DNA from: an uncultured Candidatus Saccharibacteria bacterium | GTDB lineage: Bacteria > Patescibacteriota > Minisyncoccia > Minisyncoccales > JAGMDC01 | Assembly (NCBI GenBank): GCA_964615205.1 | Contig: CAZTQA010000002.1 | Coordinates: forward strand, 1-51,285 | Direction: 5' to 3' | DNA length: 51,285 nt | Shown here: positions 1 to 15,127 of the stretch, piece by piece | How positions within the stretch are numbered: position 1 is the stretch's first letter | How the letters are laid out: the number at the start of each line of letters is the position of its first letter | Translations under genes and position numbers: made by a program | Notes under the pieces: model-generated | Databases searched by the model: none | The model's input: only the letters and a program-made list of their open reading frames with translations | What the model was told of the DNA's origin: nothing

Positions 1-2
1 CA

Positions 3-55
3 CCGCCAATTAGGACAGGGCGGCGCTTTCAGCGCCGCCCTGTCCTAATTGGCGG
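3..55. repeat. Perfect 25-bp inverted repeat (hairpin) abutting and including the tRNA-Ser 3' end
   Basis: Arms 3-27 (CCGCCAATTAGGACAGGGCGGCGCT) and 31-55 are exact reverse complements; loop TTC. Confidence 0.9.
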
Positions 56-140
56 AGGGGGTGGGACTCGAACCCACAAGTCCCGCAAGGGGACGCTGGT
101 TTTCAAGACCAGTTCCTTAGCCAATTCGGAGCACCCCTCC
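50..140 (-). tRNA. tRNA-Ser(TGA)
   Basis: Minus strand GGAGGGG...CTGGT-CTTGAAA-ACCAG anticodon arm, long variable arm, GGTTCGAGTCC T-loop, encoded CCA. Confidence 0.95.
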
Positions 141-231
141 TAATTTGTCTTTATGCCCCTACTTTACCATAATTTAGCTTAATTTTCAACTTCAAAATAA
201 AAAAGGGCAGAGCAACTATTTAGTTGATGCC

Positions 232-546
232 TTAGCCTAATATTCTTTGATCCCTTTTCATTTTTTCAATCTCTTCTCGCAAGCTCTTTATTTTTGGCAA
301 GAAGATAAGCATTGTTATCCCCGATCCAAAAAGAGAACAAGCCAAACCGAAAAGAAAAACTTTCCACAATGAAACTAAATGTATCTCTGTTATAAAAATC
401 ACGACCGCTATCAATAGAAATCCTATTGCAGAAATCAGGATTTGTCTTTTAACAATCTTGCGTGCTTGATAATCCTCCAGCGCTTTTATTTTCTGTCTTA
501 ATTCCGCTTTTTCTCCTCCACAAGGATCAAACTTCATTACTATCAT
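232..546 (-). CDS. Hypothetical membrane protein (two hydrophobic helices)
   Basis: ORF track 232-555; GAGGTG SD at 553-558 favours ATG at 546; two hydrophobic stretches. Confidence 0.65.
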   Translation of the reverse strand: MIVMKFDPCGGEKAELRQKIKALEDYQARKIVKRQILISAIGFLLIAVVIFITEIHLVSLWKVFLFGLACSLFGSGITMLIFLPKIKSLREEIEKMKRDQRILG

Positions 547-669
547 TTTATTCACCTCTATTTTAGAAATTATTCTTTTTAAACAGATAAGTCAAGCCCG
601 AAAAATAAAAAAATCGCCTCTCGGCAACTTGAAACTGCGGGTATACTCGGTCTTAAACAAAGATTTTAA

Positions 670-915
670 TTAGTACTCTAATTTTATTCCAAGTTTATCA
701 GCAATTAGATGAAACCATTTTTCATGACGATCAACTTTGTGCGCTAACATCACCATCTCTTGAAAATAGGCATCTGCTTTTTGGGCATAGGAATCAACCG
801 AAGTCTGAAGATTATTAAAATCATCTTTAGTGGTAAGATTTGATACTGCCTCTTTTAAATCGTCTTTTGTGGCAAAAACTTCTATTAATTTTTGTATATC
901 TTCGTCGGTTAACAT
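670..915 (-). CDS. Small coiled-coil hypothetical protein with (A/T)TKDD repeats
   Basis: ORF track 670-942; first ATG at 915 (MLTDEDIQKL); ATKDDL/TTKDDF repeats. Confidence 0.75.
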   Translation of the reverse strand: MLTDEDIQKLIEVFATKDDLKEAVSNLTTKDDFNNLQTSVDSYAQKADAYFQEMVMLAHKVDRHEKWFHLIADKLGIKLEY

Positions 916-978
916 ATTTGTACTTTCATTATAGTTTATCAAGGATTAATGTCAAATTGGCATCACTAAAGAACTGGA

Positions 979-1101
979 GCTCGTGAACGATGTTACTGCG
1001 TCCCACTGAAGTCCGAAGGACGAAGGAGGAGAATCAAGATTCAGAAACAAAATGAGTATATTTACATTCCGAAATTATAAAAATAGAGTTGACCCTATTT
1101 T
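979..1101 (+). repeat. att-like repeat, 'B' half, copy 1
   Basis: 123 bp identical to 2930-3052; homologous to 1628-1725. Confidence 0.92.
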
Positions 1102-1575
1102 TTCCTTATTTAATTTAAATTTAATAAAAAATTCTAAAATTATCTGTTTTACTTCTTGTAAATTATTGTACTCTCGTAACCAAATACCTTTATGGTTTTC
1201 TTCACCCAGAATAAGAGCGGATTTTGGACGATATCCCTTTTGATAAATTAACAATAAAGGAGCGGGGGTTAGTCCTATTCTTTTTCTCATTCTATTGCGT
1301 TCAATCTCTCTTCCTACACCATAACTTCCTTTACTACTCACTTCAGCAATCATACATTCACTTTCCTCAACCCAAGCAAGATCTTGTTCTAGAATTTTTT
1401 GATAGGAAAGTTTTTCTTTTGGTATTCCTAATTTTTCAGCTAAAGCTTTTCTATGATCTTTTTGTCCTACATGCTCAGATAATACTTTATGCCCTATGCT
1501 TTTAAGCCATTCTATTATTTCTGCAACATAATTATTTCTCTCATTTGCTAATGATGCAGCGAAATATATTTTCAT
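1075..1575 (-). CDS. Nucleoside 2-deoxyribosyltransferase / nucleotide N-hydrolase-like protein
   Basis: MKIYFAAS N-terminus, 'DLAWVEESECMIAEVS..GSYGVGRE' matches the NDT/RCL-family pattern; ATG at 1575. Confidence 0.7.
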   Translation of the reverse strand: MKIYFAASLANERNNYVAEIIEWLKSIGHKVLSEHVGQKDHRKALAEKLGIPKEKLSYQKILEQDLAWVEESECMIAEVSSKGSYGVGREIERNRMRKRIGLTPAPLLLIYQKGYRPKSALILGEENHKGIWLREYNNLQEVKQIILEFFIKFKLNKEKIGSTLFL

Positions 1576-1627
1576 ATTACTTAACTTTAGCAAAAATAAA
1601 AACCCGAGGCAAATGCCTCGGGCAACT

Positions 1628-1725
1628 GCAGGGACTCGTGAACGATGTTAGAACTATAATTCAGAAACAGAATAAGTATATTTATATCCCAGATTTATAA
1701 AAATAGAGTTGACCCTATTTTTTCC
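1628..1725 (+). repeat. att-like repeat, 'B' half, copy 2 (diverged, lacks the 35-bp insert)
   Basis: GCAGGGACTCGTGAACGATGTTA...AAAATAGAGTTGACCCTATTTT aligned by eye with copies 1 and 3. Confidence 0.88.
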
Positions 1726-1786
1726 TCTATTTTTTCGTAATACTAAATTTAAACCCACAGATTTAATTATTTTATTATGCTTCTTT

Positions 1787-1820
1787 AATTTAAAACTCCC
1801 CGAAAAGGGAGTTTTAAATT
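1787..1820. terminator. Intrinsic terminator-like hairpin downstream of the 1872-2357 gene
   Basis: AATTTAAAACTCCC / GGGAGTTTTAAATT inverted repeat. Confidence 0.65.
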
Positions 1821-1871
1821 TTTTTCAAGCCATAAGTTATTATAAATTGAAAAAAAAAGAAAAGGAAAAAA

Positions 1872-2357
1872 TTATGCGTCCCAATGTTCTATTGGTGTCT
1901 TTCTGAAAAACTCTTCAGAAGTATTCTGTATCGCCATTTTCAGAACCTCTTCTAAAGAGTCTATATTCCATGGCAAAACCCATCCACCCCAATCTTCGGC
2001 ATTCCATCGGTCAAGCCAGTACCTAAATTCCAAAGAAATATGATCGTTTTCGATCCTAATTCTTGTTTTTACTGGATAGCCCTTCCAATGATCGATATCG
2101 AGTTCCTTATTTTTGTTAGCCCAGTCTTGTAAAATTTTCAAATTCTCACTTGTGAGTAATGGCTCGAAAGCATGGGGATCTAAAAAAGCCATTCCTCGAC
2201 GCATCGGAGCCTTAATAATAGAAGAGACGGCGATGCGGAAAATAAGATCTTCTGCCGATTCTCCCTCATCTGGATAGATGATAATCTTTCTAATTTCTGA
2301 TTGTTTCTTGCCTTGTGGGGTTTTTGGTTCACCTACTTTGGGTAGCTCATACTTCAT
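1872..2357 (-). CDS. Hypothetical protein
   Basis: 161-aa ORF with GGAGGTG SD upstream; no family recognised. Confidence 0.8.
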   Translation of the reverse strand: MKYELPKVGEPKTPQGKKQSEIRKIIIYPDEGESAEDLIFRIAVSSIIKAPMRRGMAFLDPHAFEPLLTSENLKILQDWANKNKELDIDHWKGYPVKTRIRIENDHISLEFRYWLDRWNAEDWGGWVLPWNIDSLEEVLKMAIQNTSEEFFRKTPIEHWDA

Positions 2358-2580
2358 TTTTTTTCACCTCCAGACAAAAAACCGTTAATAATTGATTTTC
2401 TCTCTGGAGGTGAATTTTTCCCTTTTTTATTTTATTAAAGATACTTCTATTTTTTATTATATAACTATACTTTAATTTTGTCAATAGTTTGGGTAATCTA
2501 CACACATTTATTACTCAACTAAGAAACCGCTTCTACTGGAAGTAAAAAAAAGAGGGCCATAGTTTAAGCCTTCATATAAA

Positions 2581-2787
2581 TTATTCTATTAGTTTCATTA
2601 ACTGAGCATCTACTACATCGTCGGGAGCACTTGGTTTTCCATTTACAGCCCTGAAAACAAATCCACCCTTTTCTCTGAGTACAAGAACTGACTCTATTCC
2701 CGTACTGCGTTCCCAATCGCACAAAGCATCACACAATTCAGTAATCGCATCCCTAACCCTTGGATCTCGGTGTTCCTGAAGTGTCAT
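2581..2787 (-). CDS. Small hypothetical protein
   Basis: ORF track 2581-2814; GGAGGTG at ~2797-2803 favours ATG at 2787 (MTLQEH). Confidence 0.7.
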   Translation of the reverse strand: MTLQEHRDPRVRDAITELCDALCDWERSTGIESVLVLREKGGFVFRAVNGKPSAPDDVVDAQLMKLIE

Positions 2788-2877
2788 CTTTTTTATCACC
2801 TCCATATCTTTCAATATTTTCAGTTTATATTTTTTCTAACTTAAGTCAAGTCCTTCAAAATAAAAAACCGCTGGTTT

Positions 2878-3052
2878 GGCGATTTTTTGAGGCCTCTCGG
2901 TCTCTTGAACTGCGCTCAAGTTTGCAGGGGCTCGTGAACGATGTTACTGCGTCCCACTGAAGTCCGAAGGACGAAGGAGGAGAATCAAGATTCAGAAACA
3001 AAATGAGTATATTTACATTCCGAAATTATAAAAATAGAGTTGACCCTATTTT
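2878..3052 (+). repeat. Complete att-like junction: 'A' half (2878-2920), core GCAGGGGC (2924-2931), 'B' half
   Basis: A half near-identical to 3906-3949; B half identical to 979-1101. Confidence 0.9.
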
Positions 3053-3072
3053 CTCCTCAGGACGTTTTTAGA

Positions 3073-3729
3073 TTATTTTTTGAATAAACTTTTAATTATA
3101 AATGGCTTAATATCAGCTTCTATTAATACTCTTTTAGTATCTGTTCTTCTAATCATTCCATTCGTAGGTTCCGTAGCCTCATAAATTTCATTTTTAGGAA
3201 TCGAGAAACCTACATATTCAACTTTTCTTTGAAATCTATTTCTAACTTCATCAATTGCCGGAACAAGATCCGTATCAGAACTTACTAATATGGCCGTGTC
3301 ATATTTATTATCAAACGCTCCTATAATTAAATCTGTAGCAATCTTAACATCTATACCTTTCTCTCTTGATTTTTTATGATAGACTTCTTTAATCCCTAAT
3401 TCTAATAATTTTTCATAATTAATAACCCTTTTATCTATCTCTATTTTTTCAATTCTTGTCCTTAGAGTACTTGTTTTGATTATCCATTTCTCTGGCATAT
3501 TGCTAAGTTTTGTCAAAAGAGATGTCTGATTTGACATTGCTTTTTTACTTTCATAACCCTCTCTAACTGTAGCAACGTAGAAACGTTTTCCTTCTCTGAT
3601 TATAGCTCTCTCCCCAGCTAAAAATCTTGCGAACGCTTCAAAATCAAATTCAACCTCTTGGATACCTAATTTTCTTAAAACGAGGTGATAAAAATTACTT
3701 GCATCAAAAAGAATACAAACTTTTTCCAT
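3073..3729 (-). CDS. NYN/LabA/DUF88 PIN-fold domain protein
   Basis: Motifs 'FDASNFY', 'EKGIDVKIATD', 'LVSSDTDLVP' are typical of NYN domains. Confidence 0.88.
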   Translation of the reverse strand: MEKVCILFDASNFYHLVLRKLGIQEVEFDFEAFARFLAGERAIIREGKRFYVATVREGYESKKAMSNQTSLLTKLSNMPEKWIIKTSTLRTRIEKIEIDKRVINYEKLLELGIKEVYHKKSREKGIDVKIATDLIIGAFDNKYDTAILVSSDTDLVPAIDEVRNRFQRKVEYVGFSIPKNEIYEATEPTNGMIRRTDTKRVLIEADIKPFIIKSLFKK

Positions 3730-3905
3730 ATATTTTTATTATATCATACAAATATTATAAAAAGAAAAAACCCGCACACTGCATAAAGCAGGCACAGGTG
3801 ACTTTCAATTCCATGTTAGGATATTTCTAAAAATCTGTCAAGAAATTTTCTGTGGAAAACTAAAATATTTATCATCGAATTTTAATCAGGAAAATTGTTC
3901 TTCTC

Positions 3906-3960
3906 GGCGATTTTTTGTAGGCCTCTCGGTCTCTTAAACTGCGCTCAAGGGGGCAGGGGC
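3906..3960 (+). repeat. att-like 'A' half fused to the tRNA-Trp 3' end (core GCAGGGGC 3953-3960)
   Basis: 3906-3949 matches 2878-2920 with one indel and one substitution; core is the antisense of the tRNA acceptor stem. Confidence 0.88.
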
Positions 3961-4025
3961 GCCAGGATTCGAACCCGGAACAAAAATTTTGGAGATTTCT
4001 ATGATAGCCGTTTCACCACGCCCCT
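3954..4025 (-). tRNA. tRNA-Trp(CCA)
   Basis: AGGGGCG...CGCCCCT acceptor stem, anticodon loop CTCCAAA, GGTTCGAATCC. Confidence 0.93.
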
Positions 4026-4030
4026 AAATC

Positions 4031-4195
4031 TTACTTCTTTGATTCCTTGTGAACCGTATGCTTTCTGCACCACTTACAGAATTTTTTCAATTCCAACTTT
4101 CCCTCAACCAATCCTTTGGATTTCCTTGTGAAGTAATTTATTCTTTTGCAGATTTGGCACTGCATTTTTATAAATGGTTTCTTTTTTACTGCCAT
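4031..4195 (-). CDS. rpmG: 50S ribosomal protein L33 (zinc-binding type)
   Basis: MAVKKK..CQIC..NYFT..LELKKFCKWCRKHTVHKE; true start is the ATG at 4195. Confidence 0.95.
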   Translation of the reverse strand: MAVKKKPFIKMQCQICKRINYFTRKSKGLVEGKLELKKFCKWCRKHTVHKESKK

Positions 4196-14236: not shown

Positions 14237-15127
14237 CTAAATTCTTTTTTTAAATTTAAACCACCAGACCAAAAGAGGACTGACCAAGAACAAGGAAGAA
14301 TAAGTCCCTGCTGTAATTCCAATAATTAAAGCCAAAGCAAAATATTTTAAAGTTTCACCTCCGAAAAAGAAAATAGCCAAAAGCACAAACAGGGTGGTTA
14401 AAGATGTATTGATGGAACGGGTTAAGCTCTGATTTAAAGAGATATCTACTATTTTGGCAAAATCTTCTTTAACGTGGGGACTTAAGAGGTTTTCTCTGAT
14501 TCTGTCAAAAACAACTACTGTATTGTTGACAGAATATCCTAAAACCGTAAGCAAGGCCACAATAACCGGAATAGACACCTCTACTTCATAATAGTGGCCC
14601 AAAACAGCAAAAAAGCCCAAAGGAATCAAAACATCATGGCCTAAAGTAATCAAAGAAGCCAAGCCAAACTGCCAGCTTCTTATGGGCTTTTGAACAGCTC
14701 GGAAAGAAAAAGCAATATATAGAAGGACGACTAAAACAGCTAAAATTACAATTAATTTTGTTTTTTCTTTTAATTCACTCCCGATAACCGGGCCTATGTT
14801 TTCATATCTTTGCTGTTCTAATTCATAATCTTGCTTTAACCTTTCCATAATCTGGCTATGGGTTTCTTCAGGGATATCTTTGGCGCGGATAATAACTCCT
14901 TTTTCTCCAGTGGGCTGAATAACTATAGTGCCTAAATCAAACCCCGAAAGCTGTTCTCTGATTTCATCGTTAGAGGGTCTGTTTTCAAGATATTCTATTT
15001 CTAAAATGCTGCCGCCAGTAAATTCAATACCAAATCTTAAATTAAACCAAGCCAAACTAATCAAGCTTATTAAAATCAAGGCAAGAGAAAAAATAAAATA
15101 AATTTTAGAATATTTGATTATTTCCAT
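14237..15127 (-). CDS. secF: Protein translocase subunit SecF
   Basis: GIEFTGG, GYSVNNTVVVFDRIRE, RSINTS.TT, GTYSS. Confidence 0.96.
   Translation of the reverse strand: MEIIKYSKIYFIFSLALILISLISLAWFNLRFGIEFTGGSILEIEYLENRPSNDEIREQLSGFDLGTIVIQPTGEKGVIIRAKDIPEETHSQIMERLKQDYELEQQRYENIGPVIGSELKEKTKLIVILAVLVVLLYIAFSFRAVQKPIRSWQFGLASLITLGHDVLIPLGFFAVLGHYYEVEVSIPVIVALLTVLGYSVNNTVVVFDRIRENLLSPHVKEDFAKIVDISLNQSLTRSINTSLTTLFVLLAIFFFGGETLKYFALALIIGITAGTYSSLFLVSPLLVWWFKFKKRI

Follow-up and report, generated by a model that had tools for sequence, protein, structure and literature searches.

The DNA analysed here, called the window, is the whole stretch of 51,285 nucleotides (nt) that makes up the first 51 kb of contig C2 in the genome of an uncultured Candidatus Saccharibacteria bacterium (G000; 620 kb in 8 contigs). 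Near its start an array of small gene units lies between the genes for tRNA-Trp and tRNA-Ser, and two kinds of half-site, A and B, recur within the array. We consider it probable that this stretch is a stack of small units, left by repeated integration at the 3' end of tRNA-Trp through a large serine recombinase (LSR). The decisive element is a diverged copy of B, designated B', which is the antisense of the last ~25 codons of an LSR gene. Because the junction module has the identity of a recombinase tail, the array would record serial LSR integration, the recombinase bodies having since been lost.

Among the copies of B in the window, B' is the one informative for comparison, and it matches stretches of about 75 nt in many relatives. 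The module shared by these stretches shows three-base periodicity. In the antisense frame, 41 of 42 distinct modules are free of stop codons over 20 codons, while the other five frames are open in 25, 15, 3, 1 and 1 of the 42. Single-base codon differences in the antisense frame are synonymous in a fraction of 0.54, compared with 0.21 expected, and five of the six spacing variants of the module differ by 3 nt. The encoded peptide reads IV(D/N)(D/N)VRTI(I/F)Q.Q.EYIYIPDL, followed by a stop a few codons on. The peptide of the gene strand (IWDINILILSL..) was also considered and was dropped as belonging to the wrong strand; its profile, searched against 1.84 billion representatives, gave 35 matches, of which 33 were open reading frames (ORFs) of 40-159 amino acids (aa), and the other two were long proteins matched through a repeated short stretch only.

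The same tail was found at the end of recombinase proteins. A single tail peptide gave no match against longer proteins and a profile of 18 tails was required; this profile gave 85 matches, 43 of them with Resolvase, Recombinase or zinc-ribbon domains. All ten LSRs that were fetched (509-590 aa) end in this tail, the columns of which are among the invariant columns of the alignment. The tail in the window (1635-1697, plus strand) is identical to residues 519-539 of LSR P0044 at 16 of 21 positions (pairwise E 4e-10 by BLASTP). In genome G543 (contig C7), an intact 552-aa LSR gene, recognised by Pfam, includes the module, a GGTTCTAAC-type site and a core ending in CCA, and this CCA, read in antisense, is the Trp codon located three residues before the tail in all 10 LSRs. 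The initial annotation of the window had suggested looking for a recombinase gene whose 3' end holds the site; the LSRs ending in the antisense of B', together with the intact gene of G543 that includes the site, are genes of this kind.

All genes between 1 and 4400 are on the minus strand, in the order tRNA-Tyr, tRNA-Thr, rpmG, tRNA-Trp, the array and tRNA-Ser(tga). Read on the gene strand, the array starts with tRNA-Trp, A, a NYN-domain gene, B, core and A, continues with the 77-aa and 161-aa ORFs, B', core, a terminator hairpin and a 172-aa ORF resembling nucleoside 2-deoxyribosyltransferase (NDT), then with B, an unrelated sequence X, a promoter-like site and a 90-aa ORF (p90), and ends with an A-like stretch with a terminator, a 107-aa ORF and tRNA-Ser (Table 1). 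The initial annotation took the array to occupy the position of secE/nusG, which is incorrect, since secE-nusG sit after gyrB on contig C1.

Table 1. Features of the array between tRNA-Trp and tRNA-Ser, listed in the direction of the gene strand.
Feature	Position	Strand	Basis or remark
tRNA-Trp(cca), anchor of the array	3951..4026	-	ARAGORN; Rfam tRNA 54.5 bits
A copy 1, conserved right arm directly 3' of the tRNA	3906..3949	-	repeat; motif position
Cassette closest to the tRNA, NYN-domain (LabA-like nuclease) gene	3073..3729	-	Pfam NYN 6.1e-16
B copy 2, recombinase-tail module	2927..3057	-	module model R1 matches 2981-3028
Core between B and A, copy of the last 8 nt of tRNA-Trp	2921..2931	-	
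A copy 2	2878..2920	-	repeat
Second cassette, 77-aa ORF (2581-2814) and 161-aa ORF (1872-2357)	1872..2814	-	no family match
B', intact junction module, putative left arm of the attachment (att) site plus core	1623..1726	-	model R1 73.8 bits, E 4.6e-21
Antisense of B', LVNDVRTIIQKQNKYIYIPDL then stop, LSR C-terminal tail with the body missing	1635..1700	+	BLASTP, frame statistics
Diverged core, then terminator-like hairpin (1623-1602, 9 pairs)	1592..1627	-	terminator scan
Third cassette, 172-aa ORF, weakly NDT-like	1075..1593	-	PF05014 22 bits, cut-off 28.8
B copy 1	976..1106	-	direct repeat; then unrelated sequence X
p90 unit, perfect promoter-like site (955-928) and 90-aa ORF	670..955	-	homologues in relatives
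Possible degenerate short site, Gln-type core, with A-like stretch and terminator (630-611)	601..668	-	by inspection; model R1 gives no match
107-aa ORF	232..555	-	weak membrane-protein-like matches, all under cut-off
tRNA-Ser(tga), distal limit of the variable stretch	50..140	-	3' end inside a perfect 25-nt palindrome (3-55)

The recurrence of half-sites A and B, their junctions and the presence of a diverged B copy, all of which had been reported in the initial annotation, were confirmed by alignment. The two full copies of B form a 131-nt direct repeat of 98% identity; by blastn, 979-1106 and 2930-3057 are 99.2% identical over 128 nt. The third copy, B', extends over 1596-1726 and is 89.7% identical to B over the 68 nt of 1659-1726 and at 16 of 16 positions in 1635-1650. 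Both B copies carry a 43-nt segment in place of 8 nt of B', and through this replacement the invariant GGTTCTAAC motif was lost and the tail frame is closed as well: on the plus strand of B copy 2 the tail frame reads ...LQGLVNDVTASH and then stops, within a plus-strand ORF at 2760-2960. A 27-nt insertion resembling this replacement is present in a module copy of G071.

The two copies of A are 95.5% identical over 44 nt. When the adjoining tRNA end is included, a 49-nt repeat of 88% identity is obtained (2883-2931 and 3912-3960), consisting of the last 8 nt of tRNA-Trp and ~40 nt downstream. The core at 1628, 2924 and 3953 is complementary to the final 8 nt of tRNA-Trp, in a diverged form at 1628. 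A weaker echo of A was found at 616-633 (78-83% identity over 18 nt). A second echo had been proposed at 1592-1627, and this stretch turned out to hold the terminator-like hairpin and no copy of A. By blastn, no further copy of A or B was detected in the 8 contigs of G000.

To follow the module across the order, a sequence-only model (R1) was made from 12 copies. Of the 151 genomes sampled from the order, 78 carry the module, and frequently several copies are present. At the fetched loci the copies have the orientation of the genes around them and are located shortly (10-80 nt) after stop codons. Arrays start behind a co-oriented tRNA gene: tRNA-Gln at 5 loci (G146 with 16 sites, G072, G064, G132 and G032), tRNA-Asn at one (G050), tRNA-Ser at two (G079 and G038) and tRNA-Trp at two (the window and G005). 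A short form of the site lacks the 5' part of the module and consists of the invariant GGTTCTAAC, ~12 nt and the core. At L016, L034, L049 and L032 the long module often follows directly after a short site, as a gene-less unit of ~140 nt between cores.

The core changes together with the tRNA: each site ends in 7-9 nt that match the 3' end of the tRNA heading that array, for tRNA-Asn, two variants of tRNA-Gln and tRNA-Trp. The tRNA-Asn gene and its 3 sites have GCGGAGCCA in common, and in G064 both the tRNA-Gln and its sites end in GCAAC. Some of the sites in the window, G072 and G064 are followed by the same sequence as the tRNA, the shared flank extending over at least 60 nt in G072; the flank of tRNA-Trp in G003 is the flank of one site in G005. 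Half-site A holds a conserved 13-nt motif; the 368 kb of fetched loci contain 16 copies of it, 15 of which are located 12-16 nt beyond the end of a tRNA or the core of a site. G000 has the motif at three places only: behind tRNA-Trp, behind B copy 2 and, as a weaker version, behind a tRNA-Asn that lies outside the window. As far as sequence comparison can tell, recombination between a site and a tRNA 3' end would be expected to give this pattern of cores and flanks. The geometry put forward in the initial annotation, tRNA followed by A, cargo, B and again A, cargo, with serial insertion at the tRNA 3' end by a recombinase encoded elsewhere, fits these comparative data, namely the co-oriented arrays and the identity of core and tRNA end.

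Some further observations were made at related loci. In G069 (contig C14, L052, 1-280), a tail module is located just downstream of a stretch resembling what we take to be a conserved motif of the signal recognition particle (SRP) RNA, and genes besides tRNAs may be targets too. In G004 (contig C4, L022), a second copy of the 3' end of tRNA-Trp (~22 nt) follows ~150 nt downstream, after a short GC-rich insert, and behind this second end lies an island of ~10 kb with ORFs that appear, by eye, ATPase-like and restriction-modification methylase-like. When viral contigs were searched with the exact site pattern, one match was obtained, L040, which carries phage-like terminase, portal and capsid genes; its short site (14700-14819) lies where the AT-rich contig end gives way to GC-rich phage-like sequence, and the 8 ORFs scanned include no recombinase. 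A degenerate site pattern gave no match in the viral contigs, and an LSR profile identified no relatives among 20 pattern matches. G000 itself carries a second small array outside the window, on the minus strand of C2 at ~115,440-118,900. There an A-like motif (C2:118822) comes after a tRNA-Asn-like 3' end, and the array also holds a paralogue of the 90-aa ORF (C2:118492-118625) and a short site with a GACGGAGC core at C2:115474.

The cargo of the arrays is diverse. The NYN-domain gene gives a partial match to HEC-09 of PADLOC (3.5e-16) and is preceded by a promoter-like site at 3841-3813 (10/12). Promoter-like sites of the second cassette are located at 2849-2822 and 2484-2456. The stop codon of the NDT-like 172-aa ORF falls within B copy 1; the relatives of this protein in genome contigs are 26-36% identical, none being in a comparable context among those examined. 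In total, a consensus scan placed promoter-like sites before 4 of 5 units, two of them at 12/12, and terminator-like hairpins were predicted at 1623-1602 and 630-611. The ORFs of 1-4100 include no recombinase. Among 185 array ORFs, few families are recurrent.

The locus differs among genomes of the same family, as had been anticipated for cargo at tRNA-Trp. In six of these genomes (G001, G003, G004, G005, G007 and G020) compared at tRNA-Trp, the sequence 3' of the tRNA is different in all, and the four cargo proteins of the window have no homologue at the fetched tRNA-Trp loci. The 90-aa ORF, the paralogue of which was noted above, is the only window ORF that recurs at these six loci.

The stretch is present in six lake-water sequencing runs (X1-X6), four of which were examined as contigs at 3-6x depth. 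A contig of X5 spans 2752-3167 and contains B copy 2 with unique flanks on both sides, a contig of X2 spans 49-1101 across the X/B junction, and the B' junction is also covered by contigs of other runs. Uncovered parts in X5 and X6 (for example 2611-3828 in X6) were discarded as signs of absence, being no evidence at such depth. One indel polymorphism was observed, in L062, an independent contig from a metagenome that is 99.9% identical to the window. L062 runs from 3895 to 2927 with a single B copy and then from 1106 to 1; in it the NYN gene is connected to the p90 unit through the single B alone, and the contig continues beyond tRNA-Ser. By this join L062 is without a 1951-nt two-cassette block that is bounded exactly by the B repeat. 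The indel fits site-specific recombination, RecA recombination between the 131-nt repeats, or a collapsed assembly alike.

Another contig of X5 carries a B'-type arm (1636-1697, with A>G at 1666), four other letters and then the last 6 nt of tRNA-Ser with its flank (1-55), which points to a further junction of this type in that population; the join falls exactly at the start of the window assembly. The perfect 25-nt palindrome at 3-55, which takes in the last 6 nt of tRNA-Ser(tga), is real, because the independent contig L062 has it too (1885-1945) and reads beyond it. Farther on, L062 carries inverted repeats of ~78 nt (2108-2185 and 3520-3599) around a 1.3-kb segment with ORFs of 119 aa and 227 aa. 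As the first of these repeats is the end of contig C3 of G000, C3 joins C2 across a gap of ~170 nt; the 1.3-kb segment may be invertible or may be the cause of the assembly break.

Several observations weigh against serial LSR integration as the origin of the array. The genome G000, 100% complete by marker genes, gives no match to PF00239 or PF07508, and the cognate LSR is thus missing; nor did it give a match to the IS110, Y1, rve and DDE_Tnp_1 families (PF01548, PF01797, PF00665 and PF01609). A single Xer-like tyrosine recombinase is encoded on another contig. The LSR domain PF07508 occurs in 60 of the 151 genomes of the order, and it is matched in only 37 of the 78 site-positive ones: sites and LSR are both present in 37 genomes, sites only in 41, LSR only in 23 and neither in 50. 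Nearly all copies of the tail are detached from any gene; in a sample of 401 genomes of the order, 53 contained the tail and none had it in a real long ORF among the matches listed, and in a sample of 401 genomes of the phylum, with 51 positives, one copy stood in a 557-aa frame among the matches listed. A 235-aa frame with the tail in G394 was rejected as spurious, for it overlaps a real gene on the opposite strand. Both B copies of the window are devoid of the invariant motif noted above. The antisense peptide of A (RSLE) precedes the tail in none of the 10 LSRs, which leaves the right arm A unexplained. Single-unit circles and empty X-tRNA sites, named in the initial annotation as traces to be seen in reads, were absent from the contigs of the four runs. 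The L062 variant could be a repeat-collapsed assembly or a product of homologous recombination. Finally, repeated insertion beside an occupied tRNA differs from the canonical LSR reaction between attP and attB.

Only one of the 14 LSR loci fetched from relatives, L074 (G071, contig C89), lies near a copy of the module. At this locus a tRNA-like gene on the minus strand (2400-2700) is split by an insert of ~220 nt between its 5' and 3' halves. An ORF for a 346-aa serine recombinase runs antisense into this split gene, and the tail module with the 27-nt insertion is located 0.9 kb beyond. At L078 (G102, contig C3) and L082 (G144, contig C7), LSR ORFs of another type, without this tail, run antisense through the entire tRNA-Ser and tRNA-Ile, respectively. 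As these LSR genes cross whole tRNA genes in antisense, the C-termini of the proteins are encoded by the complement of the tRNA.

An account by homologous recombination only would place RecA crossovers within the tRNA end plus A, or within B, for example after DNA uptake, and would call for no site-specific recombinase. It draws on the L062 indel, bounded by a near-identical 131-nt repeat that is enough for RecA, on the Xer-like nature of the only recombinase in G000 and on the long flank shared after tRNA and sites in G072. It leaves unexplained, however, why an LSR gene tail carrying a tRNA-end core should form the junction and why the core changes with the anchoring tRNA. Homologous recombination may explain later shuffling, including L062, yet not the origin of the array, and as the sole process it seems to us unlikely. 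The Xer-like tyrosine recombinase of G000 might instead move the cassettes, as in integrative mobile elements exploiting Xer (IMEX). This is the only recombinase family found in G000, and it is the only PF00589 match in G146, G038, G064 and G050, all with large arrays; the sites nevertheless derive from an LSR gene, and no dif-like inverted arms around a spacer of 6-8 nt were recognised in the module by inspection. We regard such a role for Xer as very improbable.

The junction repeats could also be regulatory or RNA elements, such as a small RNA, a 3' untranslated region or a terminator-promoter segment, duplicated together with neighbouring genes. Terminator-like hairpins at junctions, promoter-like sites after them and the location of sites 10-80 nt after stop codons agree with this proposal. 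An RNA nature of the module was examined and rejected: Rfam recognised only the tRNAs and no other family, and RNAalifold gave no consensus fold (-0.24 kcal/mol for 12 modules, -3.75 for 7 extended modules and 0 for 15 copies of A). With conservation that is codon-like on the opposite strand, a regulatory origin is hardly credible. That the 123-nt duplicate and the order of the array are an artefact of mis-joined reads has in its favour the start of the window at a contig end, the low depth of 3-6x and the different arrangement in L062. In contigs of other runs B copy 2 is found between its two unique flanks, and the X/B and B' junctions are covered too; the same architecture is found in relatives, which leaves an assembly artefact with a negligible chance.

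Under serial integration by LSRs, the array would have been built as follows. Observed are the nature and distribution of the repeats, the match of core and tRNA end and one indel polymorphism; we infer the sequence in which the events took place, the point of crossover and any activity today. The integrating elements would belong to a family using LSRs, with the attachment site inside the 3' end of the LSR gene and this gene in opposite orientation to the tRNA. As in B', the left arm would be the antisense of the last ~25 LSR codons, and the core would mimic the last bases of the tRNA. With each integration, the far side of the unit would be left with the gene tail and a duplicate of the tRNA end, and a later unit would insert next to the tRNA again, giving rise to junctions of tail, core and A. 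The recombinase bodies would then have been lost, and cargo genes with promoters of their own would remain, flanked by site remnants. Such units resemble cis-mobilizable elements; to move, they would need either an LSR acting in trans or homologous recombination between repeats.

A broader proposal, which we put forward tentatively and with more doubt than conviction, is that recombinase-less mini-cassettes with functional att sites form a shared pool in Patescibacteria, and that LSRs of transient elements insert, excise and reshuffle them at tRNA genes; integration would also exchange the C-terminal tail of the recombinase itself, and this swap would be a possible switch between integration and excision. 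If this is true, the shared cassette pool would be a serine-recombinase analogue of the integron.

The genomes of bacteria of the candidate phyla radiation are tiny, and little is understood of the ways in which these bacteria gain accessory genes. The present locus and its relatives give a concrete answer, according to which accessory genes would be added behind tRNA genes singly or in pairs, with scars that identify the enzyme family. The site family is widespread, with the module in 78 of 151 genomes of the order and the tail in 51 of 401 of the phylum. The location of the att site within the coding tail of the recombinase itself suggests a testable regulatory idea, and LSRs with defined tRNA-end targets may interest those who collect site-specific integrases. 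The locus contributes codon-level evidence on the nature of the junction module and a natural indel variant. In the literature searched, no description was found of tRNA-anchored cassette arrays or of this LSR family in Patescibacteria, while supplements might list LSR-less islands.

Tandem stacking by LSRs is known from the staphylococcal cassette chromosome (SCC, including SCCmec), in which Ccr LSRs stack elements at the 3' end of one gene with short target repeats, and in which some units are without a recombinase. The composite SCC islands resemble the window array in LSR-type tandem stacking and recombinase-less units; the target there is the protein gene rlmH, the host is a Firmicute and the elements are tens of kb in size. 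In cis-mobilizable elements (CIMEs) and the accretion of integrative elements, units flanked by att sites have lost their recombinase and can be mobilised by the enzyme of a related element; CIMEs were described for integrative and conjugative elements (ICEs) that use tyrosine recombinases. The window units share with CIMEs the flanking att sites and the lack of a recombinase, and their mobilisation would be comparable.

From the portions of the published account available, the closest described system is that of the tandem ssrA islands of Dehalococcoides, where islands integrated one after another at the 3' end of a tRNA-like gene are associated with the serine recombinase DsiB (McMurdie et al. 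2011, PMC3146451). According to the same portions, these islands are arranged in tandem and separated by direct repeats of the gene end plus an extra conserved motif, the LSR is on the reverse strand beside attL, and some islands without an integration module are discussed as cis-mobilizable (PMC3146451). As far as that partial text goes, the islands there are ~12 kb, whereas the units in the window are 0.65-1.3 kb; here, in addition, the genome has no LSR, several tRNAs are used across relatives and the junction keeps the coding tail of the recombinase.

The layout called integron-like in the initial annotation is indeed seen, since the array shares with integrons and with clusters of attC sites lacking integron-integrases (CALINs), as covered in the accessible part of PMC4889954, the small, diverse, co-oriented cassettes, the conserved site and the absence of a local integrase. 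The likeness does not extend to IntI, to an attC-like fold or to promoterless cassettes. The tyrosine recombinase of G000 best matches Xer models, and its 103 bits are to be compared with the cut-off of 265 bits for integron integrases; module and A show no consensus fold and no attC-like fold, as judged without an attC covariance model. The anchor is a tRNA and not attI, promoter-like sites of the consensus scan precede most units, and the site stems from a serine-recombinase gene.

The tycheposons of Prochlorococcus are, in the available extract of their description, tRNA-proximal islands of streamlined genomes, in which repeated integration leaves partial tRNAs, and a minority of them use large serine recombinases (bioRxiv 10.1101/2020.12.28.424599). 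On the basis of that extract, tycheposons carry an integrase and measure several kb, in contrast to the recombinase-less one- or two-gene cassettes stacked behind tRNA-Trp in the window.

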